Below, piece by piece: positions 535 to 44,751 of a stretch of DNA of 44,751 nt. The DNA is from a virus. A program made the translations under genes and the position numbers. The notes beneath the pieces are model-generated. The model was not told the origin of the DNA. It was given only the letters and a program-made list of their open reading frames with translations, and made no database searches. The DNA lies in the IMG/VR virus record IMGVR_UViG_3300027863_000006; one strand, 5' to 3'. Position 1 is the first letter of the stretch, and each line of letters begins with the position of its first letter.

Positions 535-639
535 GTGTATACAAAAAAGGACAGAGTGTATACAAAAAAGGACAGAGTGTATACAAAAAAGGACAGGGTG
601 TATACAAAAAAGGACAGGGTGTATACAAAAAAGGACAGA
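535..639 (+). repeat. Five tandem 21-bp iterons (GTGTATACAAAAAAGGACAGR)
   Basis: Head-to-tail units at 535, 556, 577, 598 and 619 differ only at the last base. Each contains the palindromic core GTATAC. An AT-rich stretch at 490..530 lies alongside. Confidence 0.95.
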
Positions 640-658
640 GGGGCGAAACCTCTGTCCT
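626..658 (-). terminator. Rho-independent terminator of the Ubl/E2/E1/JAB operon
   Basis: 10-bp stem aggacagagg / cctctgtcct (632..641 with 649..658) and a 7-nt loop. On the minus strand a T5-6 run follows, supplied by the A-run of the last iteron. It lies 31 nt downstream of the stop of 690..1124. Confidence 0.7.
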
Positions 659-689
659 CATAGAAGTAGACGTAGACGTAGAGGAAAGC

Positions 690-1124
690 CTAAATTGGGA
701 TTTCTACCTCAACTTCACCATCCTCACGTATCAGGATAGGTTCCCTTTGCTGATATTCCCTCCAAGTTTTGGGGGAGAATAGGTAGATTATTCTCCCGGC
801 GACCTGCACGCTATTGCAGGCAACGATATCCTCAAGCAGACAAGGGATGCACATCAAACCTCCGGTTACTTTGAAGAGAGGTATGCCACTGTAAGAGTCT
901 GCAGTCCACACGTGGAAGGATTTAGGATATCCCCCCTCCTCAATCATATCTTCGCTATCCTCAAAATACACCTTATCTAACTTGAGGGGATAGTATTGGT
1001 AAGGGGAATAGAACCTATATGCATCACTTGTATACACAGGTTCCTCTACGGCAAGCTCCTTTATGAAGAAGGGAGCCTTCCTATATGCAGGAAGAAGTTC
1101 GTGGTTAATCTTTTCAATACACAT
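690..1124 (-). CDS. Hypothetical protein, fifth gene of the Ubl-conjugation operon
   Basis: 144-aa ORF with RBS GGGAG 5 nt before the ATG. It is the last gene before the operon terminator. It contains an internal ...IPLFKVTGG(88-89)LMCIPC... motif. No family was recognised. Confidence 0.6.
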   Translation of the reverse strand: MCIEKINHELLPAYRKAPFFIKELAVEEPVYTSDAYRFYSPYQYYPLKLDKVYFEDSEDMIEEGGYPKSFHVWTADSYSGIPLFKVTGGLMCIPCLLEDIVACNSVQVAGRIIYLFSPKTWREYQQREPILIREDGEVEVEIPI

Positions 1125-1241
1125 TTTATCTCCCTTTCCTTATTAATCCTACGAGAGAGGATAAAACCCAAAAGAAAAATGCTAGGAGGTAAAATCCTAT
1201 CATTACAAGTAGTGCTGTGAGGTCAGTTTTTTCCCTTATCC

Positions 1242-1943
1242 TCACTTCAACCACCTCCTCTCCTTCCAAAGGGCAACCTCATCGTCGCCTTCAATATCGG
1301 ATAGGTAAAGGTCATCGAATGGGTCAGTTTTGGGGGTAGCTGGGGGGATGGTATAGTAAGCAGGTTTGACCTTAGTAATCTTGGCAAGGTATGACCCAGA
1401 AGGGGTCACTATCTCATCATCCATTATGATTTCAGGCTTAAAGCCCACATACCCCCTATCCACCGGGTAGGATATGTGGGCGTCAGTTATACTCCCATTG
1501 CAATATAGCAATGCAATAGGAAATTGGTAACAGGTAACTGTATCAGCAGAGGAAAAGTTACGGATGCCAATAGGGTGAGCGTGAAGGATAACATTCCATC
1601 CCTCTTCTCGCTTAAGGGACAGATCCTCCTTGTAATCAACGGATGAATGAGACACCTCTTGCTCGGGAACATAAATTTGCCCATCCTCTATGATATACCC
1701 ATCCTTCTCCAGATGGGCTTTGAGCAGGAACGAAAACTCTGCATGCACTGACCTCTCAAAGCCTTTACAGCGGGCTATGAGAAAAGGTGATACATGCACG
1801 ACTCCCTTGTAGAGGATTAGCCCGCTATCCTCTATGATGGGTTCCTGTGGTCTCGGGGTAAACTGACCTGAGACCCCAGCCCTGTAAAGGTTGGTGAATG
1901 GGTCTTCCTCAGGAGGTAATGTTTTAGTCCTTTTCTTTCGCAT
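1242..1943 (-). CDS. JAB/MPN (JAMM) metallopeptidase, deubiquitinase-like
   Basis: Complete JAMM motif: upstream Glu in VHAEFSFLL (E69), then H121-A-H123-PIGIRNF-S131-S-A-D134 (HxHx7SxxD). The start overlaps the last 20 nt of the E1-like gene, and RBS AAGGA lies 7 nt upstream. Confidence 0.8.
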   Translation of the reverse strand: MRKKRTKTLPPEEDPFTNLYRAGVSGQFTPRPQEPIIEDSGLILYKGVVHVSPFLIARCKGFERSVHAEFSFLLKAHLEKDGYIIEDGQIYVPEQEVSHSSVDYKEDLSLKREEGWNVILHAHPIGIRNFSSADTVTCYQFPIALLYCNGSITDAHISYPVDRGYVGFKPEIIMDDEIVTPSGSYLAKITKVKPAYYTIPPATPKTDPFDDLYLSDIEGDDEVALWKERRWLK

Positions 1944-2517
1944 AGAAGATTCCTTTCAAAAAGGCTGGTACATCTGTTGTTAGGATTTTTTCCTCATTGA
2001 AATCCATTCCTTCCAGTGCCCTTGCTACCAGAAGGGTGGCAATTAGAACTGGTGGGACGATATAAGAAGGGGTTATTGTGTATCCTCTGCGGGGTCTATC
2101 ATCTGAAGAGTCTATGACCTCAGCACGAGGATTGGTGTGAAGGGTAAACCCCTTCCCGTTATATCCTCCCATCATTTTGACGTTTGGGATGGGAGGGGTA
2201 AGGACATCCCGGCAATCGAAGACCTCACCATCCAAAGGCTGTCCGTTCCAATTAGGATGAACATATACCTGTACAGCCTCACGGTGCTCATAGAGGACTT
2301 TAGAAAGGGCATAGGTTTTCTCCATCCCAACATCATCTAAATGGAAAGGCGTCCTATTGAGGTTAGTCCTATCCACATAATCGCTATCCCAAAGGTGTAT
2401 CTCAGGTACACCCGCTAATGCGAGGAATAACGCCGTCCAAGAACCAACGCCACCACATCCTATGACATGGGCTCTCTGCGGGATGTTTAGTTGAAGTGTC
2501 CTTTGTCGGTTATACAT
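1924..2517 (-). CDS. ThiF/MoeB/E1-like adenylyltransferase (minimal E1)
   Basis: Rossmann P-loop VIGCGGVGS. DSDYVDRTNLNRTPF matches D.D.v..sNLnRq. GMEKTYAL, VFDCRDV (the vlDctDn equivalent) and the C-terminal helix PPVLIATLLVARALEG are also present. I set the start at M20 of the tracked ORF: GGAGG lies 6 nt upstream, and the ATG overlaps the E2 stop as ATGTATAA. Confidence 0.8.
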   Translation of the reverse strand: MYNRQRTLQLNIPQRAHVIGCGGVGSWTALFLALAGVPEIHLWDSDYVDRTNLNRTPFHLDDVGMEKTYALSKVLYEHREAVQVYVHPNWNGQPLDGEVFDCRDVLTPPIPNVKMMGGYNGKGFTLHTNPRAEVIDSSDDRPRRGYTITPSYIVPPVLIATLLVARALEGMDFNEEKILTTDVPAFLKGIFYAKEKD

Positions 2518-3406
2518 ATTGTACCTCCGAATCACATTCCTCTTCAAGGTCAATATACTCGGCAAACTTCTCATCCTCTATCCAGTAGTCGGGACTAAAA
2601 CAGGAGTCAAAGTTTGCTGTTTTGAGGATTTCTGGGAGCCTTATCCCCTCGATGATGGGTTTCCCATAGAATTCTCCGACACATATACCATAGCCTAAAT
2701 CCTCCATTCCAAACCTCACATTGGGATGATGTGCCTCTTGGGCAAATACATTGAATATCCTGTGGGTGAGGGGGATGGTAAGGCGGTTAATATACAGGTC
2801 TACACCAACTTGTAGTGGGTAAATGCGTCCCTTAAAAATAGCCTGGGTTGACTGTATCCTTTTTGGGTAAACCAACAAGGTAATTTCCTCATCATCAACA
2901 GTCCTTGTCCTGACCTCCCATCCTGCACTCAAGTAGGCGGACAAAATCTTGGCTACAGCAGGATATGTAGTTTCTGAGGGGTCAGTAATAATTGAGGTCA
3001 ACAAGGGAATTGCCTTCGCTCTCTTAAGTTCCCAAATAAACCAGACAAGCCAGGAATGAACATACCCCTCTGGACGAACGTGAAGGTAAATATTATGGGA
3101 TGCATCCTCTACCATGAAAACGTCATCAGTGTAGCGGTCCTTCCATATCCTGAGAATGTGAGAGGACAATTCAGGGGAAAGAAGGTCAACATCGTGGAGT
3201 AAGGAAGCCTTAAATGGACATCTCCTTCTCAGGGTAGATAACTTCTTCCCCACGCGTAGGGCGGAATAAGGTAGTAGCTCTCCTATTTCCTCTATATCAA
3301 AGATGTTGTTTTCCAAATACACCTTATCTTTCCTATCCTCTATGGAGCCTGTGTCGCTCCACATGATGCTGTATCCTAATTGGTTAATCAGTTCCTTTGT
3401 TTCCAT
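2510..3406 (-). CDS. E2-like (UBC-fold) protein with an uncharacterised N-terminal domain
   Basis: The C-terminal part carries the E2 hallmark HHPNV(227-230)RFGMEDLGYG-IC(242)VG, that is HPN followed by a Cys. Before it lies a beta-rich F.G..YPL.V segment. About 150-200 aa at the N-terminus have no recognisable motif. RBS GGAGG is present, and the gene is translationally coupled to the E1-like gene. Confidence 0.55.
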   Translation of the reverse strand: METKELINQLGYSIMWSDTGSIEDRKDKVYLENNIFDIEEIGELLPYSALRVGKKLSTLRRRCPFKASLLHDVDLLSPELSSHILRIWKDRYTDDVFMVEDASHNIYLHVRPEGYVHSWLVWFIWELKRAKAIPLLTSIITDPSETTYPAVAKILSAYLSAGWEVRTRTVDDEEITLLVYPKRIQSTQAIFKGRIYPLQVGVDLYINRLTIPLTHRIFNVFAQEAHHPNVRFGMEDLGYGICVGEFYGKPIIEGIRLPEILKTANFDSCFSPDYWIEDEKFAEYIDLEEECDSEVQYV

Positions 3407-3430
3407 TTTTCCTCCACATTATTAAGGAGC

Positions 3431-3464
3431 GGGGCATCCCATTGCAGGTTTAATGGGATGCCCC
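3431..3464 (-). promoter_or_regulatory. Perfect 13-bp stem-loop between the Ubl and E2 genes. Attenuator or mRNA-stability element.
   Basis: ggggcatcccatt (3431..3443) pairs with aatgggatgcccc (3452..3464) around an 8-nt loop. It starts 12 nt after the Ubl stop. No U-tract follows on the minus strand. Confidence 0.6.
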
Positions 3465-3476
3465 TCTAAAGTGAGG

Positions 3477-3716
3477 CTATTTCGCCTCGTTATATTCAGC
3501 GAGGATATATGTTCCCTCGCTGAGTGGGTAAGAGGATGCTGTTACATACCCCCCATCCTCTTTTTGAAGGGTAAATAATTTGAATCCCAGCTTGCGAGCA
3601 AAAGCTCGTACTTGTTCCCTTTCCACTGGGGGAGTTAGAACCTCTTCGTCGTTCCCGTGACGGATAACGACCTTCGAGCTATCCTCGATACCTGATGATT
3701 CAACATACTCTTGCAT
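3477..3716 (-). CDS. Small ubiquitin-like (beta-grasp) protein candidate
   Basis: 79 aa from the ATG at 3716, with RBS AAGGAG 7 nt upstream; the tracked TTG start at 3743 is less likely. The pattern KVVIRHGNDEEVLT / VEREQVRAFARKLG / FKLFTLQKEDG / TYILAEY fits beta-beta-alpha-beta-beta. It is the first large gene of an E2/E1/JAB operon. It ends in ...AEYNEAK with no terminal Gly. Confidence 0.5.
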   Translation of the reverse strand: MQEYVESSGIEDSSKVVIRHGNDEEVLTPPVEREQVRAFARKLGFKLFTLQKEDGGYVTASSYPLSEGTYILAEYNEAK

Positions 3717-3739
3717 AGGTTTACTCCTTTCAGTTATGG

Positions 3740-3838
3740 TCAAGGTTTACGCCTCACTGCTGAGGCGATTGTTGCTAACATAAAGGACGCTACAAATAGC
3801 CAAAACACAATGCCTTGAATAGAGGTTAAATCGGTCAC
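3740..3838 (-). CDS. Possible 32-aa single-pass membrane micro-protein, leader cistron of the Ubl operon
   Basis: GTG start with AAAGGA 8 nt upstream. The peptide is MTDLTSIQGIVFWLFVASFMLATIASAVRRKP, a 20-aa hydrophobic core followed by RRK. It is below the ORF-track size cutoff. Its TGA lies just upstream of the Ubl RBS. Confidence 0.3.
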   Translation of the reverse strand: MTDLTSIQGIVFWLFVASFMLATIASAVRRKP

Positions 3839-3875
3839 ATTATGTATCCTTTCAAATTGTTCAACATGCGATATA

Positions 3876-3904
3876 AATATAATATAATAGAATTGCAAAA
3901 ACAA
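3876..3904 (-). promoter_or_regulatory. Sigma70-like promoter of the Ubl/E2/E1/JAB operon
   Basis: The minus strand reads cacTTGTTTttgcaattctattatatTATATT. -35 is at 3899..3904, -10 at 3876..3881, spacer 17. The alternative TTGCAA-N17-TATATC is overlapped. The module matches the promoter at 506..534. Confidence 0.5.
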
Positions 3905-3905
3905 G

Positions 3906-3924
3906 TGTCCAGTTTTGTATACAC
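3906..3924 (-). repeat. Sixth, inverted iteron copy
   Basis: The reverse complement gtgtatacaaaactggaca matches the 21-bp iteron gtgtatacaaaaaaggaca at 17 of 19 positions. It lies between the divergent promoters at 3876..3904 and 3980..4008. Confidence 0.7.
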
Positions 3925-3952
3925 TCGCCGCAACCGCTGCCGCTGCGGGTTT

Positions 3953-3974
3953 AGCAGTAGCAGTAGCAGTAGCA
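3953..3974. repeat. Hexamer microsatellite (AGCAGT)x3+
   Basis: agcagtagcagtagcagtagca, preceded by (ccgctg)x2. An analogous (gtagac)x2-gtagag triplet lies at 666..683, next to the iteron array. Confidence 0.8.
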
Positions 3975-3979
3975 AGTAT

Positions 3980-4008
3980 TTGACTTTTGGATTTTAATTT
4001 CGTATATT
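3980..4008 (+). promoter_or_regulatory. Sigma70-like promoter (TTGACT-N17-TATATT) for the plus-strand early block
   Basis: TTGACTtttggattttaatttcgTATATT with an exact 17-nt spacer, 43 nt upstream of the dam ATG. It closely resembles the promoter at 4916..4944. Confidence 0.6.
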
Positions 4009-4025
4009 ATACATATATATGTATA
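4008..4025. promoter_or_regulatory. Perfect 18-bp palindrome at the -10/+1 region. Candidate operator.
   Basis: tatacatatatatgtata is its own reverse complement and overlaps the last base of the -10 and the predicted start site. Confidence 0.45.
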
Positions 4026-4050
4026 TATACGTAGAGAATAGGGGGTACTA

Positions 4051-4884
4051 ATGTTGAAAACACCACTATTTTACTATGGGGGCAAGCTTTCCAGGCTTCA
4101 TAGTCTTTTGGAGATGATCCCCCCACATCGGATTTATGTTGAAGTCTTCGGAGGCTCGGCTGCTTTGTTAATAGCAAAAGAGCCCAGCGAAGTTGAGGTG
4201 TATAATGATATTGACCTTAATGTTGTGAACTTTTTTAGAGTACTACGTGAGCCAGCAAAATTTGTTAAGCTGTACAATATGTTGACACTAACCCCAGTAA
4301 GTCTCTATGAGTTTACAGAAGCCAAGAAAACATTGCCATTTGAAGCCGATGATGTGATGAAAGCCTACAAGTTCTTTATAGTGAACAGGCAAAGCTTTTC
4401 TGCTGCAATGCAAACTTGGGCAAGAGGTATTTCGTTCTCTATAAGAGATATAGGTAAGCTACCAGCGACATGGCTCAATGCTTTAACAAGGTTAAGCTTA
4501 ACAGCTGAGCGGTTAATGAGAGTACAAATAGACAATGTACCATTTGAAAGAGCATTTGAGCTATATGACACAGAGGAGACATTCTTTTATTGTGATCCCC
4601 CCTATGTTGCAGAGACAAGACGTTCTAAGCAAGTTTATCCCAATGAAATGAGTGATGAAGACCACAAGAGATTCTTAAGTATTGTCAACAGAGTTAAAGG
4701 CAAAGTTCTTATTTCAGGCTATGATTCAGAACTCTATAACACAAATCTCAGTATTGGCTGGCAACGTAAAGAATTTTCATCCCACGCATCCGCCGCAGGT
4801 AGGACAAGACAGACTGGCTATATTGGCAATAACAGCACAAATAACAAACAACAGCGAGTTGAAGTGCTCTGGTGGAATTATTAA
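4051..4884 (+). CDS. dam: DNA N6-adenine methyltransferase, D12 (Dam) class
   Basis: N-terminal YYGGK, SAM motif VEVFGGSAAL, NDID, and the catalytic FFYCDPPYV (DPPY). Confidence 0.9.
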   Translation: MLKTPLFYYGGKLSRLHSLLEMIPPHRIYVEVFGGSAALLIAKEPSEVEVYNDIDLNVVNFFRVLREPAKFVKLYNMLTLTPVSLYEFTEAKKTLPFEADDVMKAYKFFIVNRQSFSAAMQTWARGISFSIRDIGKLPATWLNALTRLSLTAERLMRVQIDNVPFERAFELYDTEETFFYCDPPYVAETRRSKQVYPNEMSDEDHKRFLSIVNRVKGKVLISGYDSELYNTNLSIGWQRKEFSSHASAAGRTRQTGYIGNNSTNNKQQRVEVLWWNY

Positions 4885-4915
4885 AAATTTTTAATCTTTT
4901 TTTAATCTTTGAGCA

Positions 4916-4944
4916 TTGACTTTTGAGTTGAAACATTGTATATT
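4916..4944 (+). promoter_or_regulatory. Sigma70-like promoter (TTGACT-N17-TATATT)
   Basis: TTGACTtttgagttgaaacattgTATATT. It shares TTGACTTTTG and GTATATT with the promoter at 3980..4008. Confidence 0.6.
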
Positions 4945-4988
4945 GTATATGTGAATAATGAAGTCAAACATAAGAAAGGAGATTGAAA

Positions 4989-5240
4989 ATGTTGACACGA
5001 AAGGATTACCGAAAGATTGCAGATGAGTTGTGTAAAATTAACCCCAATATGTGGATGTGGCGTGAATGCCCTGAGGCTGAGGTTGCGGGTGTTCTGCTTG
5101 GATTTCTATTTAAGCAGGAGAATTTCGACTATCAGAAATTTTACGACTACGTCCGCAAGAGAAACGAGAAAATAGGAGACCTCATTAGTATGTACCACGC
5201 AAACATGTATTTCAAAGGTCATACGGAGGGGACAAGATGA
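4989..5240 (+). CDS. Hypothetical protein
   Basis: ATG at 4989 with AAGGAG 7 nt upstream; the tracked TTG at 4983 is less likely. The stop overlaps the next start. Confidence 0.6.
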   Translation: MLTRKDYRKIADELCKINPNMWMWRECPEAEVAGVLLGFLFKQENFDYQKFYDYVRKRNEKIGDLISMYHANMYFKGHTEGTR

Positions 5241-5662
5241 TACTCAAAGAAAACCTCAACGAGAAGATCACAGGTGCTCGTGATATCTATAACCTCATAG
5301 TTTCCATACTTGCCACGGAGAATGAGGTTGATCAGAAGAAAGAGCATTATTGGGTGATTGGGACAGACACCAAGGGCAAGGTACTCTATGTTGAACTTGT
5401 GACCCTTGGTATCCTCGATGAGTGCACAGTCCATCCAAGAGAGGTGTTTAGGTTAGCGATTCAGAAGGCTTGTAAGTGGATGTTTCTCGTCCATAATCAT
5501 CCATCAGGTGATCCTGAACCAAGCAGACAAGATGAGCGAAACCATGTGCGGATGGTGGGCGTGGGAGATCTTGTGGGAATCCCTGTGAGGGATGAGCTGA
5601 TAATCGGTGCAGGTAGGTATTACTCATTTCTTTCAACAATGGTTGAGGAGGTTGATCAATGA
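5237..5662 (+). CDS. radC: RadC-like JAB-domain protein
   Basis: HPREVFRLAIQKACKWMFLVHNHPSGDPEPSRQD matches the RadC/UPF0758 signature (HNHPSG..PS..D). IPVRDELIIG corresponds to the family's vlDHiIvg motif. Confidence 0.85.
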   Translation: MILKENLNEKITGARDIYNLIVSILATENEVDQKKEHYWVIGTDTKGKVLYVELVTLGILDECTVHPREVFRLAIQKACKWMFLVHNHPSGDPEPSRQDERNHVRMVGVGDLVGIPVRDELIIGAGRYYSFLSTMVEEVDQ

Positions 5663-6024
5663 TTGAGATTAAGTGGGACAAAGAGGGTTATCCAACTAAG
5701 GCGTCGTTGAGACGTTTACGCAAGGCTGTAAAGGAATTTAATAAAGAGGGAGTAGAAGCATTCTATGCGGCATTGCAGAAAAATTGGTATGGTTTCTGCT
5801 GGACTGAGTTTCAGGATATAGGAGGCGAACTCAAATTAGTCTTGGCTTATCACACTGGTGGGTGGTCTGGGAATGAGGAGATTATTGCTGAGCTTCAACG
5901 CTCTCCTATTTGGGGTTGGGCTTTGGAACGGTATGATGCTATAGGTCACTATTATTTTCGACCAAAAGAAAAGGCTCAAAGACGTGCACGGGGGCTTCGT
6001 CATGAGAGCAATCACCAATCATAG
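5659..6024 (+). CDS. Hypothetical protein
   Basis: 121-aa ORF with an ATGA overlap with the upstream gene. No motif was recognised. Confidence 0.6.
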   Translation: MIEIKWDKEGYPTKASLRRLRKAVKEFNKEGVEAFYAALQKNWYGFCWTEFQDIGGELKLVLAYHTGGWSGNEEIIAELQRSPIWGWALERYDAIGHYYFRPKEKAQRRARGLRHESNHQS

Positions 6025-6138
6025 GTTGAGGAAGAAGTTAGTTCGTATAATTGAGAAGAAGTTGAGGAACAAGTATGTTGTATTTAAGGCAGTCATGAGA
6101 AGAGTAATTGGTAACCACAAACGGAAAGGAGTCAAGAA

Positions 6139-6858
6139 ATGAATGAGGAAATATTTGAACTCGTTAGGGAGCTTCAAGGGGAATTTTCTCCGGGTTCCGA
6201 AATGGAGGCATTCCACGCCCCTATCCCTGAGGATGCTATTGATATCCTCCCGACTGGGGAACTCTACATCCCACATTCCTTCTTCATTAAGAGGCTCAAC
6301 CAAGCATTCACCTACAACTGGGTTCTTCTTCCTACTGGTGGAGTAAAGGACTCAATAGAGACAACATCCGATGGGAAAAGAAGGGGTAGCATCTGCCTTG
6401 AGTATGCTCTTTTTGCAGCTGGGATCCTTATTGGTATTGCGTGGGGTGAGGGCGAGATACAGTCTGAGAGGCAGAGTGTTGGAACGGCACTTGAATCAGC
6501 CAGATCCTCTGCTTTAACGAGAATATGCATGAAGGCTGGTGTTGGGCTTGAACTATATGACGATACTTATGTATTGCAGTGGAAACAAAAGCATGCTACT
6601 CAGATACGCAATGAGAAGGGTAAGCTCATTTGGGTAAAGAAGCCCCAGCCTCATGTAGAGACCAATGGGAAGACCGATAAGTTTGCTTTCCTGAAAGCCG
6701 TGGAGACATTGAAGAAACAGGTCGGTGATAAGGCTTATTATGCTGTACTTCAGAAGTATGGTGTAGACCACGCCAATAAACTCACTGACCGGGATAAGCA
6801 AGCTGCATTTTACCGAGAACTTAAAGCCGTAGCCGATACGGCTCACGAACCAGAATGA
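6139..6858 (+). CDS. Rad52/Sak/MGM101-like single-strand annealing protein
   Basis: YIPHSFFIKRLNQAFTYNWVLLP and ALESARSSALTRICMKAGVGLELYD resemble the Rad52-family core. RBS AAGGAG is present. It sits next to an exonuclease, as in phage recombination modules. Confidence 0.6.
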   Translation: MNEEIFELVRELQGEFSPGSEMEAFHAPIPEDAIDILPTGELYIPHSFFIKRLNQAFTYNWVLLPTGGVKDSIETTSDGKRRGSICLEYALFAAGILIGIAWGEGEIQSERQSVGTALESARSSALTRICMKAGVGLELYDDTYVLQWKQKHATQIRNEKGKLIWVKKPQPHVETNGKTDKFAFLKAVETLKKQVGDKAYYAVLQKYGVDHANKLTDRDKQAAFYRELKAVADTAHEPE

Positions 6859-6866
6859 GGTGAAGT

Positions 6867-7787
6867 ATGATAGCACATGCCTTTTTCGAGGCTGATAAGC
6901 AAGAGGCTCTTCAGAGCGTCGCTAACAAGCCAAGCCGTGCGTTATACTGGATGAGCCGTGTTGGTAAAATTCTTGAGTGTGGAAGATGGGGGGTATACTC
7001 CAATCTTGATATACCGCAGGAACCCCCCTATCCCCGTATAATGCGGGTTTTCAGAAACGGTTCGTACGTAGACCAGCGTTTGAAGGAACAAGCATCGCTA
7101 ATTGTTCCTAACTTTAAGAATGTAGATATGAGGCTGGAATATGAGATACTTCCGGGTCATACGGTTAGTGGGAAAATTGATGGTATGATAGATCCAAGCC
7201 CATACGGGAAAACCATCGTGGAGTTCAAAGGGCTTTCCACAGGAGGATATAACAGAGGAACGGTTGGTGACATTGATATAACCTATCAGGTGCAAGCTGT
7301 TCTCTACGCTTTGGCATCAGATGCAAAGGCTATAGACTTTGTGATTGAGCATAAGGAAACACAGCAGATCATCGAGATACTTTATGTGAAGGATGGGGAA
7401 GCCTTCACTGCATCAATAGAGCGTTATAGGGACTCAGCCTTGTTGGATTACGTCACAATTGAGAACGCTATTCCCTTCAATTTAATTGATGACCTCAAGG
7501 AGCGTTTGGAGCTTGTGAAGAGTGTATCGTCTATCGAGGACGCAAAGAAGATTTTCACAGTGCCGCACGACCCATGGAAGTGTCATAACTGTGACGGTCA
7601 AGGGTTTAAGGTATATAAGAAGGGCTCAGCACCTTGTAATGTATGCAAAGGGACTGGATTAGAACCTGAGCCTAAACTACTTTATCCTTGTAGCTATTGC
7701 CCCTATAAGAGCGTTTGCTTCCCCAATCAGAAGATGGAGATTGAGGGAGGTAAGCCAGTGTTCTATCTAAAAACCGAGGGTGAATAG
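6867..7787 (+). CDS. Cas4/RecB-like PD-(D/E)XK exonuclease with 4Fe-4S cysteines and an inserted DnaJ-type zinc finger
   Basis: The nuclease motifs are D105 (GKIDGMID), E119-F-K121 (VEFKG) and Q143xxxY147. The Cas4 Cys set is C38 plus C275-x2-C278-x5-C284. The insertion is C239HNCDGQG ... C257NVCKGTG, two CxxCxGxG units. Confidence 0.75.
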   Translation: MIAHAFFEADKQEALQSVANKPSRALYWMSRVGKILECGRWGVYSNLDIPQEPPYPRIMRVFRNGSYVDQRLKEQASLIVPNFKNVDMRLEYEILPGHTVSGKIDGMIDPSPYGKTIVEFKGLSTGGYNRGTVGDIDITYQVQAVLYALASDAKAIDFVIEHKETQQIIEILYVKDGEAFTASIERYRDSALLDYVTIENAIPFNLIDDLKERLELVKSVSSIEDAKKIFTVPHDPWKCHNCDGQGFKVYKKGSAPCNVCKGTGLEPEPKLLYPCSYCPYKSVCFPNQKMEIEGGKPVFYLKTEGE

Positions 7788-7876
7788 CCATGATAAGCGA
7801 TGCACAAGTCTCTTTCACCCGACGCAGTTACAATGCGGCGTGACCCAGATACGTTAGACCTTTTTGAGGATAGCAA

Positions 7877-9784
7877 ATGAAGCTCTACGCAGAGTATGCA
7901 ATTGAGGGAGTCGCTAACAGGAATCAGTTCTATGTTAACGGCTCCCCAAAGCTCACTGGTAAGAGTGAGTGCTATAGAAGCTTATTTCTCTTCCCGGCAA
8001 GTGAGTTAGGCAAGCCCTCACCTGAGCTGCTTACGGCGGATGCCTTTGTCTTTGACTTTGATAACCCTAATGATATTGAGTTGGCAAGGAAAAGTGCACG
8101 TAACTTCGTGTGGTACCTCGTTGACAATAAGATTCCATCTCAGTATATTAGGATATCTTTCAGTGGCAGCAAGGGCTTCCATGTAGTGCTTTCAACAAAG
8201 GTGGCACAGGCTAATGTCGTGAAAGAAGCAGATGAGTATATTGAACGATATCGCAGGTTTGCGTTGAAACTTGCTGAGGGGTTCTCTTATGCGGATCTAT
8301 CTATATACACTCCTCGCAGATTAATCCGTGTCATTAATACCCGGAATGAGAAAACTGGTCTATACAAGATTCCTATTACCTACGATGAGTTTTGTGCCGA
8401 TGAATTTAACCTGCCATATCTTGACCTTGCTGCCCAACCCCGTATACTTCCGCAAGAAAAGGTTGAGATAGAACCCATTGAAGAATACGTAGAATTATTC
8501 CATTCAGCGTTGGAGAAAACCCCGAATGGCACAAAACGAGACTATGTTGAACTCCTCAAGAGAGACATTCCTGAGGGCGAGAGGCATAACACACTCGTTT
8601 ATCTTGTAGGTCATCTTAGAGCAAAGGGTTTGCGGGAAGCTGAGGTTCTGGAACTATTAAGGGGATGGAATCAAAAGCTTACCACACCTTTACCAGACAA
8701 AGAAGTCGTGGCAACCATAAAGTCATTGTTTAGCAAGGCTGACAAACATCCCTCAAGAAAGCCTCTTATTCTTCTTAGTGGAAGCGACATCGTGGGGGAG
8801 AAGGAAAAACCAACCAATTATCTCATAAAAAGACTTGTCGCTCATCCCTCATTGAACATACTCTTTGGTGAGGAGGGATCTGCTAAGAGTATTCTTATGG
8901 CTAACCTTGCTGTATCAGTAGCCGCTGCAAGAGATAAATGGCTATCGTGGGATGTAGGTAAGACAGGTCACGTTATCTATGTTGATGCTGAGATGGATAT
9001 ACAATCGGTAAAGAATCGGTTTATACGGATGGTTAGTGTATTATCCGAGCAGCAGAAAACTCTTCTATCAAGACTGACGATTATCACCGAGTCGCCGCTT
9101 TTCAAGGAACTCAAAAATGAGCTAATATCCTTATGTGAGGCATACAAACCAGTTCTAATCATCTTTGATGACCTTTACTTTCTACACTTAGCCGACGAGA
9201 ATAAAGCCTCCGATATGAAGGGTATAATGCAGGAGTTCAGAGAACTGAGGGATAGATTCAATGCTACAGTCTTTGTTGTGCACCACACGAGGAAAACAAT
9301 TGATATCCAGCCCATGGATAACCAACAGATGAGGGGGTCGCAAGTCCTTGGTGCAATTGTAGATAGTGCCTTTCAGTTAAAGTATTCCTTGAAGGAGCAG
9401 GGCAAGGTTTTGTTCAAGCCCACAAAGTTCAGGCATATACCCATTGATGAGAGGGAGACGCATTTACTCAGTCTTGACAAGGATACTCTCTGGCTTACCG
9501 ATGAGGGTGTTGTAGAGGAAAGAGACCATCTCATTTACCAGCAGTCCGAGATTACTCCTGATGAGATCTTTGGAGCTAAACCAGCGTTGTTTATTCAGGA
9601 TATTAAACGTGCTCTCAAAGAGCGGGGGAAAACAGAATCCCAAGCACACTGGATTCTATCTAAGTGGGTCAAGAAGGGGCTAATAGTAAGAACACCGATG
9701 GGAACGTATATGCGAACCGAAAGTCTGGAGAATAACAATGATAACGGCGAATCAAGCAACGAAGCTGATACTAAGGTTCATTAA
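7877..9784 (+). CDS. Bifunctional primase-polymerase (AEP) / RecA-fold replicative helicase
   Basis: AEP motifs DFDNPND, SGSKGFHV and RLIRVINT. PriCT-like GERHNTLVYLVGHLRAKG. Walker A GEEGSAKS and Walker B VLIIFDDL in the C-terminal half. Confidence 0.8.
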   Translation: MKLYAEYAIEGVANRNQFYVNGSPKLTGKSECYRSLFLFPASELGKPSPELLTADAFVFDFDNPNDIELARKSARNFVWYLVDNKIPSQYIRISFSGSKGFHVVLSTKVAQANVVKEADEYIERYRRFALKLAEGFSYADLSIYTPRRLIRVINTRNEKTGLYKIPITYDEFCADEFNLPYLDLAAQPRILPQEKVEIEPIEEYVELFHSALEKTPNGTKRDYVELLKRDIPEGERHNTLVYLVGHLRAKGLREAEVLELLRGWNQKLTTPLPDKEVVATIKSLFSKADKHPSRKPLILLSGSDIVGEKEKPTNYLIKRLVAHPSLNILFGEEGSAKSILMANLAVSVAAARDKWLSWDVGKTGHVIYVDAEMDIQSVKNRFIRMVSVLSEQQKTLLSRLTIITESPLFKELKNELISLCEAYKPVLIIFDDLYFLHLADENKASDMKGIMQEFRELRDRFNATVFVVHHTRKTIDIQPMDNQQMRGSQVLGAIVDSAFQLKYSLKEQGKVLFKPTKFRHIPIDERETHLLSLDKDTLWLTDEGVVEERDHLIYQQSEITPDEIFGAKPALFIQDIKRALKERGKTESQAHWILSKWVKKGLIVRTPMGTYMRTESLENNNDNGESSNEADTKVH

Positions 9785-10109
9785 CTCATTGCCACATTGC
9801 TTTGCTATGAGGGTGAATACTATGGGTGTTTATGACGCAAAGCGTGGTAAATATCGCAGGATCTGGGATGTTCATTCGGTAGGCAGAGCCGACATTATTG
9901 CTTGTATGAATGGGAAATATGTAGAAGTAGAGGTTAAGGTTGGTAAGGATAAACAAAGCGAGAATCAAGCAATGCACGAGGAGATAGTCAAGCACTGCGG
10001 TGGTGTGTATATTCTTGCCGAGTGCCACGATGCCTCAGATTTACCTGTGATATACAATAAATTGTATGACGTAGTTAAAACGGAGAAAACGAAAGGAGAG
10101 AAGAAATGA
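9738..10109 (+). CDS. VRR-NUC / PD-(D/E)XK nuclease, resolvase-like
   Basis: GRADIIACMNGKYVEVEVKVGKDKQSENQ fits G.pD....(n)ExK....ls..Q. RBS GGAG lies 7 nt upstream. The gene overlaps the primase gene end by 47 nt. Confidence 0.65.
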   Translation: MITANQATKLILRFINSLPHCFAMRVNTMGVYDAKRGKYRRIWDVHSVGRADIIACMNGKYVEVEVKVGKDKQSENQAMHEEIVKHCGGVYILAECHDASDLPVIYNKLYDVVKTEKTKGEKK

Positions 10110-10516
10110 GCTGGCAGGATATTTTAATTAGTGCCATTCTAATAGTGACTATTCTCACTATTCAGATAAGAGGTATGATATGGGAAAGAAAGTATGGTGC
10201 TAAATATATCTATACCAGAAAACTCAAGGAGGAAAAGAAAAGAAGGGAATGTGCGAAATATCTAAAGTGGACAAAGGTTAAGCCAACGAAGCCTTGCTTG
10301 TTTCTTACACGGGACCATTACAAAGACCACTACGATTATCAGGTGTGGCAACTTAAGTGGTCGTATGGTTTTGATGAGAAGGGTAAGCCACTAAAGTATC
10401 TGGCAATACTAAGTTGGTGTGAGGAAGAATACGGAACTCTTGAGGATTTCGATGCGGATGAATATCTTGTAGTTAAGGAATATGATGGCAATGGAGGTAA
10501 AAATGAAACTCATTGA
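10106..10516 (+). CDS. Hypothetical membrane-anchored protein
   Basis: N-terminal TM segment ILISAILIVTILTIQI followed by a K/R-rich stretch. ATGA overlap with the upstream gene. Confidence 0.55.
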   Translation: MSWQDILISAILIVTILTIQIRGMIWERKYGAKYIYTRKLKEEKKRRECAKYLKWTKVKPTKPCLFLTRDHYKDHYDYQVWQLKWSYGFDEKGKPLKYLAILSWCEEEYGTLEDFDADEYLVVKEYDGNGGKNETH

Positions 10517-10847
10517 TGATTATTTGGATGCGATCAAGGCAATCCATACTACAGGGAGAGCTTTAGGCGAGAAACTCGTTGAGGTTCTAAAGCCTATGTT
10601 CCCCGATTTAACCTTTAGGCTGGGTGATGTAGATACTGGGATAGAGGTATTATTTCTCTGGGATGATTCTGATACGTACAATAGATGGTCTGATAATAAT
10701 GCACTTGATAGTTTAGACTCTGTTATTACCAGGGTTTTCCCGGAGTTGGGATTTCGCATCTCCACACCGGGAATATGGCTTTACCCTGAAGAGGTGGATA
10801 GAGTGAAACAAATATTAACCCAATGGAAGGAGAGTACGGAGGAATGA
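10503..10847 (+). CDS. Hypothetical protein
   Basis: ATG at 10503 is preceded by GGAGGTAAAA. The tracked start at 10482 lacks an equivalent RBS. Confidence 0.55.
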   Translation: MKLIDDYLDAIKAIHTTGRALGEKLVEVLKPMFPDLTFRLGDVDTGIEVLFLWDDSDTYNRWSDNNALDSLDSVITRVFPELGFRISTPGIWLYPEEVDRVKQILTQWKESTEE

Positions 10848-10848
10848 A

Positions 10849-11211
10849 ATGGAGAAACGTAACAGGATGCCTTGTCCTCTGAATGAATTCACTGAACATT
10901 GCACAGGCGATATGCCCTTATTGGACAACTATAACCATCAGAATGGAGGTAAAACTATGGAGAATCAGCAACCCTTATCTGAACCCGACCTTGTTATGAA
11001 GGAATTGGATGCTCTTCAATTATTACTCTTTGAGCTACAGCGGAACCTTGCGGCTATTGGTATTGTTTACCAAGAAGGAGCCCGGCAAAATGGCGAGTTG
11101 ACCAAACTCACAACATCATTCTATACTGGGCTTATTCACATCGGTAGAAGATTGCGGAGAGTTGAGGAACTGATAACTGGAGGAACGTATGAGAACCAAG
11201 GTAGGTCTTAA
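10849..11211 (+). CDS. Hypothetical coiled-coil protein
   Basis: GGAGGA lies 5 nt upstream of 10849. A second strong internal start at 10957 (GGAGGTAAAACT-ATG) is also possible. Confidence 0.5.
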   Translation: MEKRNRMPCPLNEFTEHCTGDMPLLDNYNHQNGGKTMENQQPLSEPDLVMKELDALQLLLFELQRNLAAIGIVYQEGARQNGELTKLTTSFYTGLIHIGRRLRRVEELITGGTYENQGRS

Positions 11212-11512
11212 TCGTATAGTTGCTGTTTACCGCAAAGCGGATTTAATGGAGAGTAAGAAGGCAGCCCCGTCGGTTTATCTGGTAAATATACCTGACGACT
11301 GGACTCAGAAAAGGATAAAGGATGAGCTGGCTAAGATAGATGTTTATTTTGATGATACCTATAAAACCCATTGGGATGACCGCCAATACTTCATGCGAGA
11401 GGAGGACCCTGCTAAGTGGGATGGAAAATATTGGAAGTTCCTAAAAAATAAGCATAACTCAGCGACACTCATCCTCGAATACTATAACGGACAATTCTTC
11501 TGGAGGAACTGA
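11189..11512 (+). CDS. Hypothetical protein
   Basis: GGAGGA lies 4 nt upstream. The gene overlaps both neighbours, with ATGA at the 3' end. Confidence 0.55.
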   Translation: MRTKVGLNRIVAVYRKADLMESKKAAPSVYLVNIPDDWTQKRIKDELAKIDVYFDDTYKTHWDDRQYFMREEDPAKWDGKYWKFLKNKHNSATLILEYYNGQFFWRN

Positions 11513-12186
11513 TGATAGCACCAGTTAGGAAACTTACCAAGCGTGAAATCATCTGGCTTGGAACTCATAGGTGTTCACATGGTCACACATATCTGGAGCA
11601 CTATGAGTGTTACTTGAAGGAACAGGAAAGCCCAACCGAGAAGATCGGTTTCCTTGATATTGAGACAACGAACCTGAATGCGAACTTCGGGGTAATTTTG
11701 TGCTGGAGTATAAAGCCACTAAATCAGGAGGTGGTATCCGATATATTGAGCCCTAAGGACTTTAAGTCCGCTGATGAGTTTTATATTGATAAGCGGGTCG
11801 TTAAGAGTCTTATTCAGGAAATGATGAAATACGACCGTCTGGTCACTCACTACGGGACTCGCTTTGATATTCCATTTATTCGCTCAAGAGCTCTCGCATG
11901 TAACGTGGAGTTCCCGCCTTATGGTAGTATTATACATAATGATACCTACTATATGGCAAGGAATAGGTTGAAACTAAATTCCAACCGACTTGACGTAGTT
12001 GCACAAGCCTTGTTTGGTAAGTCTGATAAAACCCATCTTAGTGGTAATATATGGGTAGCGGCTGGTAGAGGAAACAAGAAGGCTCTGGAGTATATTCTTG
12101 AACATAATAAGGTTGATGTAATTGAATTGGAAAAGGTATGGCTGAAGCTAAGAAAATTCGTGATGCCGAGGGATACATCGATTTAG
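11512..12186 (+). CDS. RNase H-fold 3'-5' exonuclease (DnaQ/YprB-like)
   Basis: Exo motifs IGFLDIETTN (DxE), THYGTRFDIPF and HNDTYYMA. Confidence 0.7.
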   Translation: MIAPVRKLTKREIIWLGTHRCSHGHTYLEHYECYLKEQESPTEKIGFLDIETTNLNANFGVILCWSIKPLNQEVVSDILSPKDFKSADEFYIDKRVVKSLIQEMMKYDRLVTHYGTRFDIPFIRSRALACNVEFPPYGSIIHNDTYYMARNRLKLNSNRLDVVAQALFGKSDKTHLSGNIWVAAGRGNKKALEYILEHNKVDVIELEKVWLKLRKFVMPRDTSI

Positions 12187-12869
12187 CATCATACGCAAAG
12201 CTTTACAGCTCTCTGGGGGAGCTTCGAGAGGGGATTAAACTGCTTGGAAAGGCGGCAACGCTTCTTCAGGGAGCTGTTGTTTATTATGCAGCGGTTAGCT
12301 CTGGTAAAGGACTCACCAAGACCATCAACGAACTTGGGGAACTGACTGGTGTACATCCCAGCTATCTCCATCTTCACCTCAGCCATATAAGAGAGGTAAT
12401 AGAGAGGAATCCAACATTTGAAGACTTTCTTGCCGGGAAGGTAAAGGGTCTAACGCCGCACGCACAGCGTAAACCAGAAGATGTGGGAGAAAGAAACATC
12501 GAGGGAACAGTTAAGTATCTTGCTCGTGTCTTGCGAAGGGTAAACAATGAATATAAGAGCCAGCTTCCCGGAGGTGCTGAGGCGTTCTTTCAGGTGTTAC
12601 TACTAACACATGGTAAGTTCAAACGTACACTACAGAGGCAACTTGAGGGGATGGCTAAGTCAAAGGATCCTAAGATTCGGAAAGTGGCCCAGAGAGTTCG
12701 GGAAAAGCTGGCGTTAATCTACGATCTCCAGAAGCCTCTTGATGAAGAGCTGAAGCAACTTTCTTATACCGAGCGTCAGAGGATTCTCCAATATCTCGAC
12801 GATAAAATCCGAATTTTGAAAGGGGAACCTTCTCAATCAGGTTCTGGGCGTTCTGAGAAGCCTCGGTAA
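12138..12869 (+). CDS. HTH-containing protein, candidate transcription regulator
   Basis: LTKTINELGELTGVHPSYLHLHLSHIREVI looks like a helix-turn-helix. The rest is helical and basic. It is the last gene of the plus block. Its 3' 200 nt overlap the convergent ATP-grasp gene. Confidence 0.45.
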   Translation: MAEAKKIRDAEGYIDLASYAKLYSSLGELREGIKLLGKAATLLQGAVVYYAAVSSGKGLTKTINELGELTGVHPSYLHLHLSHIREVIERNPTFEDFLAGKVKGLTPHAQRKPEDVGERNIEGTVKYLARVLRRVNNEYKSQLPGGAEAFFQVLLLTHGKFKRTLQRQLEGMAKSKDPKIRKVAQRVREKLALIYDLQKPLDEELKQLSYTERQRILQYLDDKIRILKGEPSQSGSGRSEKPR

Positions 12870-14049
12870 AACTTTGACCTCTTCCGATAAAAATTCCCGC
12901 ATAGCCAGTCTCACTTGAGATCAGCGTCTTCCCTTTAGATTTCTTCACTTCAATAAGATAGACGTCTTTTACGTCTTGATGGGATAAATATTTCAAGTTC
13001 AGATGTTCATTGTAGAAGCTATCTTTAACATTGGTTATATCTTCTATTGGAAAATGTGGGAATGCTAAGACAAGCCCAACGTGTGGCTCACCAACCTTAA
13101 ATCTAAGGGTAAAATCCATTGAGTATAGCCTTGAGAAGAACGCCCACACAGGTTCATCAAGCATAGCTAATTCGATGTAGATGGCTGGATAGCCTAATCT
13201 AAGTGTCCACTCTACAAGCCACAATTGCCCCGAATCATCCAAAATGCAATTAGCGTCAGCCTCACCAGTATAATTGGTTAAATAAGGTATAATGGGGCGT
13301 AGCATCTCATCATAGATTCTATGGGGACCTTCGTAAGCAATGATTCCAGTTCCCATTTCTCCAGTAGTTAAGCCACGGTTTCCCTCAAGGAACTTCTTAT
13401 GTTCAAAGTTCTCAAATATAATAGGTCCGTCTCCTCTACCCATCGCTACTCCGCTAACAACAAATACGCTGGCGGCAACCTCAGTTCCACTAATGAGCTT
13501 CTGTAATATTAACTTACCTTTAGGTAACTTTGTCTTTGACTGCACCGCTTCGAGATGGTCTATTAGGTCAGATGAGTCATTCTCTTGGGCAGCAAAGTTC
13601 AGAGTTTTAGGCATACCCCCGGTCTGCTTTAGAATATACCTCTGGGGATGGAGCTTTATGAAGTTCACAACCTCTGGTATTGACTCAATAACGTGATACT
13701 CAGGTATTTTAACTCCAATGCTTCGAGCAAAGTTATACTGCCATTCACGGTCAACTTCTATCTTCTGTCCAAACCTATTTGTCCCAATGACTGGAATGTG
13801 GTGCTCCCTCATCTTCTCTTGAATACTTCCCCATTCAAAGCTATCAAAGATGAAGTGCCAGTCATGGTGACGGCGAATAAACTCTAATAGAGGTGTATTA
13901 GAGCCAAAATACCTCTTGATGCCGAACCCTGTGATGATCTCGTTTTGGCTCTTTAAAGCATTCCAAAAAGATACCTCATTCCCCTCATCGTGCAGACGAA
14001 GGGCGAGTCCAGCCCCATCCCCTTCTTTTGAGACTATAGCAAATCTCAT
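12670..14049 (-). CDS. ATP-grasp enzyme, PurD (phosphoribosylamine-glycine ligase)-like
   Basis: FEHKKFLEGNRGLTTGEMGTG matches the PurD HKR...GPNTGGMG loop. The C-terminal GFYRRDIG matches the PurD fYRkDIG end motif. The N-terminal MRFAIVSKEGDGAGLALRL fits a pre-ATP-grasp domain. Confidence 0.75.
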   Translation of the reverse strand: MRFAIVSKEGDGAGLALRLHDEGNEVSFWNALKSQNEIITGFGIKRYFGSNTPLLEFIRRHHDWHFIFDSFEWGSIQEKMREHHIPVIGTNRFGQKIEVDREWQYNFARSIGVKIPEYHVIESIPEVVNFIKLHPQRYILKQTGGMPKTLNFAAQENDSSDLIDHLEAVQSKTKLPKGKLILQKLISGTEVAASVFVVSGVAMGRGDGPIIFENFEHKKFLEGNRGLTTGEMGTGIIAYEGPHRIYDEMLRPIIPYLTNYTGEADANCILDDSGQLWLVEWTLRLGYPAIYIELAMLDEPVWAFFSRLYSMDFTLRFKVGEPHVGLVLAFPHFPIEDITNVKDSFYNEHLNLKYLSHQDVKDVYLIEVKKSKGKTLISSETGYAGIFIGRGQSFTEASQNAQNLIEKVPLSKFGFYRRDIGESSDARYKKVASALHQEASGDRRLTPAFPELSGPLSES

Positions 14050-39146: not shown

Positions 39147-39642
39147 CCTTCACCCCACGACAAATTGTTTGCCACTTGACTTTTGCAACCAAATATGGGC
39201 AGTCCTCAAGAATCTCTACATTCTTAAAATGCTTACGCATATACATTAAGAGAATGTCTTCCGTAAAGACCCGCTTATGCATTAACTCAAAACTTGTCCC
39301 CTTCGGATCACCATATTGTTCCCAATAACACCCAAAGACAATTTGATTAAGATGGTCAAGTTCAACTCTTCCCTCCCGATACTCTTTTAGTCCCTTCTCA
39401 ATATCCGGGACTGTTACAATAATTGTCCCGCCGGGCTTCAGCACTCTCTTCCACTCTTCTAAAGCCACATCTGTATAAATAAGATGTTCTAAAATATGCC
39501 CAGCATAAATCTCATCCACTGAATTGTTATCATAAGGCAACACCCGAACATCGGCGACTACATCTGGCTTCACTGAGGGGTCAATATCAATGTTCACAAA
39601 CCCAGGGAGCTTCCATTGATTGCAACCGAGGTTCAGCTTCAT
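39136..39642 (-). CDS. Class I SAM-dependent methyltransferase (Methyltransf_11-like)
   Basis: LNLGCNQWKLPGFVNIDI (motif I), VDEIYAGHILEHL and LKPGGTIIVTVPD. ATGA overlap with terL. Confidence 0.8.
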   Translation of the reverse strand: MKLNLGCNQWKLPGFVNIDIDPSVKPDVVADVRVLPYDNNSVDEIYAGHILEHLIYTDVALEEWKRVLKPGGTIIVTVPDIEKGLKEYREGRVELDHLNQIVFGCYWEQYGDPKGTSFELMHKRVFTEDILLMYMRKHFKNVEILEDCPYLVAKVKWQTICRGVKDGD

Positions 39643-44650: not shown

Positions 44651-44751
44651 TGTTAATCTCCTTCACATCGTCTGCAATGTGTGAATGTTTGACCGCATTC
44701 CGTGCTGACTTGCCGGAGAAGTCAATACCAAGCTGCCGTGCGAGGTCAGCA
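44625..44751. repeat. Second copy of the terminal 127-nt overlap
   Basis: Identical to 1..127. Confidence 0.9.

Follow-up and report, generated by a model that had tools for sequence, protein, structure and literature searches.

The viral genome IMGVR_UViG_3300027863_000006 from IMG/VR, analyzed here as one stretch of 44,751 nucleotides (the window), carries on its minus strand four neighboring genes that encode a ubiquitin-like protein (Ubl), an E2-like protein, an E1-like adenylating enzyme, and a JAB/JAMM metalloprotease. These four conserved-family genes occupy window positions 1242-3716 (~2.5 kb) and are referred to below as the cassette; their coordinates are given in Table 1. The open reading frames (ORFs) and their overlaps are as described in an earlier note made from the letters of the window: the ATG of the E1 gene lies within ATGTATAA, where it overlaps the E2 stop codon (8 nt) and is preceded by a GGAGG sequence 8 nt upstream, and the start of the JAB gene overlaps the end of the E1 gene by 20 nt. 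We consider it likely that the cassette is a self-contained, phage-encoded Ubl conjugation pathway of a previously uncatalogued family. If so, this virus probably tags proteins in a ubiquitin-like way, as bacterial hosts and eukaryotes do.

For the Ubl gene, the ATG start gives 79 amino acids, and a TTG located 27 nt upstream would give 88; the shorter form is favored because of an independent gene call in L001, a metagenomic contig of the same phage, and the alignment of homologues. No Pfam or PDB sequence match was found for Ubl, and a PDB search with the Ubl profile gave nothing meaningful. An AlphaFold2 model based on a 30-sequence alignment has a beta-beta-alpha-beta-beta topology (predicted local distance difference test score [pLDDT], 81.3). 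In a Foldseek search of the PDB with this model, SUMO (3v61_A; TMq 0.65) leads, and the other matches include bacterial BilA (8tyx_A and 8tyz_B), ubiquitin, FAT10, ISG15, and the Caldiarchaeum ubiquitin (E values, 4e-3 to 2.5e-2; probability, ~1). Among the matches listed, all of the top ones are beta-grasp/ubiquitin-like domains; in BFVD, the model matches, among others, ubiquitin-like proteins of giant viruses and the ubiquitin that bovine viral diarrhea virus has captured. Judging from the model, the 79-amino-acid protein is a beta-grasp Ubl. Its C-terminal tail is strongly conserved in the family (EEYNEAK, with the variants YNEAA, YNEGA, and YEEGA) and is followed by 0 to 2 variable residues (NY, GF, A, C, K, DV, or EV). 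Position 78 is Ala in 26 and Gly in 3 of the 30 sequences, and position 79 is Lys or Ala. A Gly or Ala end of this modifier would be possible only after trimming. By analogy with bacterial systems, the JAB may expose Ala78/Gly78: in E. aridi, the deubiquitinase (DUB) BilC trims BilA between Gly97 and Ala98 and so takes off the residue that follows the reactive Gly (PMC10557695), and BubCD cuts BubAB after a Gly (PMC11601596). It is also possible that Lys79 is the activated residue.

The E2-like protein consists of a lineage-specific N-terminal region (residues 1 to 160) and a core that resembles ubiquitin-conjugating (UBC) enzymes (residues ~160 to 298) and carries H227-P-N229 and the catalytic-type C242. 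The window protein is an orphan in a word-indexed search. An exhaustive HMMER search with it found 24 proteins below an E value of 0.001. Of these, one is the same phage's truncated copy; with a single exception, the others match over residues ~175 to 290. H227, N229, C242, G244, N265, D267, and S268 are invariant in this family, and P228 is nearly so (consensus YHPNv-x6-12-vCLGDLeGkP...LP..LkT.NLDSAY); the Cys is present in all 28 aligned sequences. The Pfam family UQ_con was matched below threshold by 6 of 23 homologues over profile positions 42-134 of 140, the best match reaching 24.6 bits (2.1e-5; cutoff, 27 bits), and none of the family members matched Prok-E2 families. When the 28-sequence profile was compared with the PDB, UBE2C (E 0.0038) and UBE2N (0.03) were retrieved; 58 of the 60 matches listed are E2 enzymes, with HPN, the catalytic Cys, and NxDS aligned. 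Likewise, an hhalign comparison of the family with UbcH5B gave a probability of 70%. A single-sequence AlphaFold2 model of the protein was unusable (pLDDT, 33). Both the HPN-Cys motif and the profile matches argue that the C-terminal domain of the 298-amino-acid protein is UBC/E2-like.

The E1 gene product is a clear member of the ThiF superfamily (Pfam ThiF, 7.3e-17, above the cutoff). As a single sequence, it matches MccB, PaaA, TcdA, UBA5, UBA3, MoeB, and ThiF in the PDB, the first three being the best matches; a 12-sequence family profile matches UBA3 (1.7e-16), Cap2 (4e-11), and BubCD (1.6e-8). The family shares the motifs G20/G22/G25, D44/D46, N52-L-x-R55-T56, K67, and D101-x-R103-D104, and the nucleotide- and Mg-binding residues are all invariant in the 12 homologues. 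The only Cys residues of the window protein are located in GCGG, where the Cys is variable, and in DCRD, where it is replaced by Ala in one relative (L004). Tyr146, in contrast, is near-invariant within the motif YT(I/V)xPS. Bub E1s are minimal enzymes without a conserved Cys and use a Tyr oxyester (PMC11601596). By analogy, Tyr146 is an oxyester candidate, its position relative to the crossover loop being inferred only.

In the JAB protein, the zinc-site residues E69 and H121-x-H123-x7-S131-x2-D134 are invariant in 11 homologues, as expected for a JAMM protease. Seven of these 11 match Pfam Prok-JAB (best, 4.7e-4, below the cutoff), the window protein itself reaching an E value of only 0.16, and the JAB profile gave no significant PDB match. 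All four proteins had been recognized by motif in the earlier note, and each assignment is independently supported: the beta-grasp-like pattern of the 79-amino-acid protein agrees with the AlphaFold2 model and Foldseek, the HPN followed by Cys (H227...C242) is invariant or nearly so and its profile matches E2s, the ThiF/E1 adenylation domain has conserved motifs and is matched by Pfam ThiF and UBA3, and all five residues of the full JAMM motif (E69, H121xH123, S131xxD134) are retained in every homologue.

Profile-guided scans and contig look-ups, in which neighborhoods of +/-10 kb were inspected, show that genes of these four families lie next to one another in at least 11 divergent loci from metagenomes, with 20-45% identity to the window proteins. 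The gene order is Ubl-E2-E1-JAB in most loci, Ubl-E1-E2-JAB in L017 and L021, and E1-JAB-E2-Ubl in L028 and L029 (L numbers denote individual loci), and in L004-6, Ubl is fused to the N terminus of E2. Because the four families recur together in shuffled orders and as a Ubl::E2 fusion, they form one functional module, and their co-occurrence is far beyond chance. The cassette is the only thing that the other loci have in common with the window phage. Elsewhere its neighbors are dense small ORFs, helicases, DNA methyltransferases, AAA ATPases, and transposases, and no capsid, portal, or terminase genes were found within +/-10 kb by a PHROG scan. Thus, the window alone is demonstrably phage, and the other loci are mobile-element-like. 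Among 50,697 GenBank phage records, no DNA match to the cassette was found, and tblastn searches of these phages with the window E2, the window JAB, another Ubl (P0027), and another E2 (P0018) gave nothing; the same E2 (P0018) gave nothing in PLSDB plasmids by tblastn. In IMG/VR, no close relatives of E2, E1, or JAB were found, nor were any found by a motif-limited profile-pattern scan. A motif-limited scan of 185,579 species genomes found the family in one genome only, on a 39-kb contig of a Sulfurovum metagenome-assembled genome (MAG); matches in Elusimicrobia MAGs (L026 and L027) were spurious partial ones and were discarded. Full-text searching of the literature found no description of a phage-encoded Ubl-E2-E1-JAB cassette.

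Cassette-family members also occur on recurrent ~27-kb contigs, L030 and L031 (ENA ERZ23499206 and JGI 3300017593), which carry a Gins51_C-like gene and a Cas_csx3-like gene and no PHROG-recognizable proteins. These may be archaeal viruses or plasmids, in which case the module may cross domains. Of 20 such contigs examined, 10 have lengths of 20-50 kb.

A short acidic motif, [VI]-[WF], is shared by three of the four proteins. In loci L011-L025 it is found at the N terminus of Ubl (EVWEVE), the C terminus of E2 (xxVWxx), and the N terminus of JAB (VWDSGL), and in L025 all three proteins have Phe in it. At the corresponding sites of the window (Ubl, 3690-3716; E2, 2510-2540; the N-terminal strand of JAB, about 1815-1840), none of the three copies has Trp (EYVE, VQYV, and IEDSGL, respectively). 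One may speculate, from few systems, that this motif is a common docking peptide.

The composition of the module bears on another possible function. Proteins of the ThiS/MoaD type serve as sulfur carriers, and MccB/PaaA-type enzymes adenylate C termini, so that the cassette could belong to a pathway like CysO-Mec+ or the siderophore/microcin systems, in which the small protein would be activated by E1 and processed by JAB with no transfer to a target, and not to conjugation. The best single-sequence matches of E1 (MccB, PaaA, and TcdA) are of this kind, E1 lacks a catalytic Cys as does MoeB, and sulfur operons that combine JAB, E1, and ThiS/MoaD are known (PMC1779556). However, an E2-like protein with an invariant HPN-Cys accompanies the other genes in every case and in some loci forms a fusion with Ubl; Ubl has no Gly-Gly tail, and none of the loci encodes a rhodanese, a cysteine desulfurase, or a biosynthetic enzyme; the best match of the E1 family profile is UBA3; and the small protein is a folded 79-residue beta-grasp domain and no short peptide. 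We therefore regard a sulfur-carrier or C-terminal adenylation pathway as quite improbable and conjugation of Ubl as the better description of the module.

The carrier of the cassette is a phage. The portal, major head, large terminase, and primase-helicase genes were recognized by PHROG profiles (Table 1), in agreement with the proposal in the earlier note that the set lies inside a phage genome and not in a host island; the window also encodes a Cas4-like exonuclease (PHROG profile), a Dam-type methyltransferase, a RadC-like protein, and an Mgm101/Rad52-like annealing protein, and no tRNA genes are present in it. The ends of the window are identical over exactly 127 bp (1-127 = 44625-44751), and the genome is therefore closed or terminally redundant and complete, with 44,624 bp. 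Of the description "complete virulent podovirus-like genome", the phage nature and the circular closure are borne out, but not the assignment as a virulent podovirus; a scan of part of the window ORFs turned up no lysogeny genes.

Two observations could suggest that the cassette is a host fragment mis-joined into the phage contig or a decayed, nonfunctional remnant. (i) Its tetranucleotide composition departs from that of the rest of the genome and is among the most deviant 3-kb stretches, only 1 of 84 stretches of equal size deviating more. (ii) In one variant, the E2-like gene contains a stop codon: at position 9952 of L001 (window 3050), a single G-to-A change turns W119 into a stop and splits the gene into ORFs of 118 and 163 amino acids, although the 163-residue ORF could still provide the UBC-like domain. 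The change could reflect variation in the population or an error in sequencing. On the other side, L001 (a 17.4-kb JGI metagenome contig) is collinear with window positions 647-13001 at 99.86% identity and crosses both cassette junctions, and the identical Ubl sequence is present on seven contigs, six of which are 20-50 kb long. Together with the circular closure, these data exclude a chimeric join. The catalytic residues are all intact in the window, and the genes are closely spaced, overlap, and have a Shine-Dalgarno sequence. For these reasons, the mis-joined or remnant explanation is largely refuted and extremely unlikely to be correct. The deviant composition fits a horizontally acquired accessory module, and the W119 stop variant suggests that the E2-like gene is dispensable.

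Outside the four genes, the layout described in the earlier note needs some revision. Of the five-gene operon that it proposed, the four families stand; the fifth gene (144 amino acids) is co-transcribed with the cassette and is not part of the module, and a sixth, small hydrophobic ORF of 42 amino acids, for which the independently assembled contig L001 has a gene call, had been missed. By jackhmmer, both the 42-residue ORF and the 144-residue protein were found only in L001, that is, in the same phage, and the latter has no Pfam, PHROG, or PADLOC match; from these searches, neither appears to be a conserved part of the module. The terminator that had been placed at the downstream end is a strong hairpin read at 659-631. 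The promoter candidate at 3911-3884, which is divergent from the plus-strand early/replication genes starting at 4051, is only plausible, because promoter-like sites in the region are no more common than in shuffled sequences (10 found versus 8.5 expected).

Table 1. Positions of the cassette genes, flanking sites, and phage hallmark genes in the window
Feature	Position	Strand	Remarks
Promoter candidate, sigma-70-like	3884..3911	-	TGGACA-16 nt-TATTAT, 10/12 matches; upstream of cassette
Ubl gene	3477..3716	-	79 aa; single beta-grasp (predicted)
E2-like gene	2510..3406	-	298 aa
E1 gene	1924..2517	-	197 aa; single ThiF-type Rossmann domain
JAB/JAMM metalloprotease gene	1242..1943	-	233 aa
Small hydrophobic, membrane-like ORF	1126..1254	-	42 aa; between JAB and 144-aa genes
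144-aa gene	690..1124	-	Co-transcribed with cassette; outside conserved module
Intrinsic-terminator-like hairpin	631..659	-	11-bp stem, 6 GC pairs, T-run; strong; ends cassette transcript
Primase-helicase gene	7877-9784		PHROG profile
Major head protein gene	34320-35885		PHROG profile, 1.1e-39
Portal gene	36856-38757		PHROG profile, 7.6e-77
Large terminase gene	39639-41060		PHROG profile

Three further features of the window were noted. Directly downstream of the cassette, at 534-640, lies a 21-bp tandem repeat (5.1 copies, 97% identity; plus-strand unit AGTGTATACAAAAAAGGACAG) that shares sequence with the 3' arm and the T-run of the terminator and could represent iterated terminators, iterons, or operator sites. 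A second JAB-fold protein, the RadC-like one (Pfam, 1.3e-30), is encoded among the divergent early genes at 5237-5662 (+), 1.5 kb away from the cassette, and its gene adjoins that of the Dam-type methyltransferase (4051-4884). Between the replication and structural modules, an ORF of 459 amino acids (12670-14049, -) has a borderline match to the ATP-grasp family GARS_A (3.9e-6; 27.3 bits versus a 27-bit cutoff). Ligases of the ATP-grasp type also modify proteins or peptides.

From the folds and motifs of the four proteins, the linkage of their genes, and the phage carrier, we infer a chemistry, a target choice, and a role for the cassette. By homology, the JAMM protease would mature Ubl at its YNE[A/G][K/A] tail by taking off the last residue(s); in relatives with a Ubl-E2 fusion, it would cut Ubl from the fusion. 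The minimal, probably homodimeric, ThiF-type E1 would then adenylate the exposed C-terminal carboxylate with ATP. Since E1 has no conserved cysteine, the activated Ubl would pass to Cys242 of E2 either directly or via a Tyr146 oxyester, as in Bub E1s. The E2~Ubl thioester, aided by the HPN motif, would hand Ubl over to a lysine of the target. Because no E3 is encoded, the target would be picked by the lineage-specific N-terminal region of E2. The JAMM protease may also undo the conjugation.

Several observations weigh against this interpretation. The E2 assignment draws on profile matches with modest E values (the best being 0.0038) and on sub-threshold Pfam matches, no other member of the family is as divergent as the window E2, and the similarity to UBC enzymes is limited to about 60-90 residues preceded by an unrelated region of 160 amino acids. 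Ubl lacks a terminal Gly or Gly-Gly, and Hor et al. call the C-terminal Gly of Ubls obligatory (10.1101/2023.09.04.556158). Only the N-terminal ~125 positions of E1 align with known E1s, and its C-terminal half contains no conserved Cys of the kind that canonical E1s use for catalysis. No target, E3, or effector was identifiable. Finally, the nonsense variant of the E2-like gene could mean that the system is decaying in this phage.

With regard to its role, the cassette resembles a moron-like accessory module that would act, during infection, on proteins of the host or of competing viruses, and not a core virion or replication function, because it is divergent from the early/replication genes, has an atypical composition, and carries a nonsense mutation of the E2 gene in L001. 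An adjacency to helicase and methyltransferase genes is also seen in two relatives (L025 and L028). Candidate roles are host takeover or anti-defense, exclusion of rival phages, and modification of the phage's own proteins. As a tentative and bolder idea, the cassette might represent a lineage of Ubl conjugation that is specific to viruses and mobile elements, with a eukaryote-type HPN-Cys E2, a minimal Cys-less E1, and a modifier activated at a C-terminal Ala or Lys in place of Gly, and that serves during infection to label proteins of the host, such as factors of immunity or replication. Phages and possibly archaeal viruses may be its users, and a [DE]-[VI]-[WF] peptide may dock Ubl, E2, and JAB onto E1 as a hub. 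If true, this would be a prokaryotic counterpart of the manipulation of ubiquitination by eukaryotic viruses.

CBASS type II and Bil are anti-phage defense systems, and Bub is inferred to be one. To our knowledge, prokaryotic Ubl conjugation as represented by these three systems has so far been described as host-encoded. A complete cascade borne by a virus reverses this picture and suggests offensive or anti-rival protein tagging by phages. It also stretches the chemistry in three ways, in that the modifier has no terminal glycine and the E1 no catalytic cysteine, yet the E2 has HPN-Cys. The family is thus a test case for the evolution of E1-to-E2 transfer and for the question of whether HPN-type E2s circulated on viruses. 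Being small and self-contained (four genes, about 2.5 kb), the module is open to direct synthesis and testing.

Among the closest known systems, Bil likewise consists of four separate genes (Ubl, Cys-type E2, JAB/JAMM, and E1) without an E3, and its DUB pre-processes the C terminus of Ubl. The cassette might be a Bil-like superinfection-exclusion or defense module that happens to be carried by a phage. Its components are of the four types found in BilABCD (PMC11601596; PMC10557695; 10.1101/2023.09.04.556158), the Foldseek search puts the Ubl model near BilA, the lineage-specific region of E2 could recognize targets without an E3, and the cassette is accessory-looking and deviant in composition. 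The differences are nevertheless considerable. The Bil E1, BilD, is large, combining IAD, AAD, and CYS domains and carrying a catalytic Cys, whereas the cassette E1 is a single domain of 197 amino acids without a conserved Cys; BilA frequently contains two beta-grasp domains and its terminal Gly is invariant, whereas the cassette Ubl has one such domain and ends in YNEAK; and the cassette E2 has the eukaryote-type HPN, the E2s among the PDB matches of its profile being of the eukaryotic type. Bil is carried in bacterial defense islands and the cassette by a phage, and the single occurrence among the species genomes scanned is unlike that of a bacterial defense-island gene. With PADLOC, only "E1-E2" (CBASS) models matched, over E1; Ubl had two nonsignificant PDC-S35 matches (E 0.006 and 0.03), and E2 and JAB had none, although PADLOC v2.0 (2023) may not include Bil. 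In addition, no lysogeny genes were identified in the part of the window ORFs that was scanned. A defense module of this kind is, in our judgment, an unlikely identity for the cassette.

The Bub system (6E/DUF6527) resembles the cassette in other respects. Both have a minimal, homodimer-type E1 that lacks a catalytic Cys and has a conserved Tyr after the adenylation core, Y370 in BubCD and Tyr146 in the cassette, a likeness by region and not by aligned position. The Ubl-E2 fusion of relatives L004-6 is reminiscent of BubAB, and in Bub the JAB matures Ubl, as proposed for the cassette. However, the Bub E2 uses Ser, whereas the Cys of the cassette E2 is invariant; JAB is fused to E1 in Bub, whereas the two are separate genes in the cassette; the DUF6527 serine protease BubE, a constant part of Bub, is absent from the cassette (whose only Pfam matches are ThiF and a weak Prok-JAB); and the Bub Ubl is cleaved after a Gly, whereas the cassette Ubl has no terminal Gly.

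CBASS type II (Cap2/Cap3) and the cassette both join E1 and E2 chemistry with a JAB, and CBASS substrates may end in either Ala or Gly. In CBASS, E2 and E1 are fused in Cap2, whose substrate is a CD-NTase and not a Ubl, whereas the cassette has separate E2 and E1 genes and neither a CD-NTase nor an effector. With the canonical UBC E2s of eukaryotes and archaea, the cassette E2 shares HPN, a Cys about 15 residues downstream, and N-x-D-S, which align with UBE2C, UBE2N, and UbcH5B. Because of its E1 architecture, the missing terminal Gly, the absence of DUF6527, the Cys-type E2, and the lack of a Cap2 fusion and a CD-NTase, the cassette is, by its predicted proteins, a member of neither Bil nor Bub nor CBASS.

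Related gene sets may exist in other phages. The ThiF genes of Flavobacterium psychrophilum phages of the FpV4 group are annotated as "thiamine biosynthesis protein". In FpV4 (L035; KT876724.1, 59313-69489) and Dulem virus 41 (L034; PP511520.1, 67929-78207), a gene with a full JAMM motif (HSHx7SGxD; Prok-JAB, 8e-3 in FpV4 and 5e-5 in Dulem virus 41) lies directly upstream of ThiF, and the product of a gene two positions further upstream has an N-terminal domain that looks like a beta-grasp and terminates with KSGG or VSSG. A 289-amino-acid protein of Fpv3, presumed from its equal length to be the homologue of this beta-grasp-like protein, is a BFVD structural match of the cassette Ubl model. 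The proteins of 373 and 420 amino acids that adjoin JAB-ThiF in Dulem virus 41 and FpV4 were considered as E2 candidates ("HSH...CLG") and rejected (hhalign probability, 3%), so that no E2 was detected in these loci by hhalign. Judging from these sequences, the two loci look like an unannotated JAB-E1-Ubl-type set in the replication module. This hints that Ubl-type phage modules are wider than the cassette family and that a culturable model exists.

Among viruses, a Ubl combined with a JAB was reported earlier for the tail assembly proteins of lambda and T1, where the Ubl TAPI is accompanied by the JAB-NlpC protein TAPK (PMC1779556), and ThiF-like genes, i.e., E1 alone, have been found in Asgard viruses (10.1101/2021.07.29.454249). 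Unlike the cassette, both are partial sets with neither an E2 nor a complete cascade. What is new here is therefore a complete predicted Ubl-E2-E1-JAB cascade on a virus, in which a noncanonical chemistry is combined with a canonical E2 motif.

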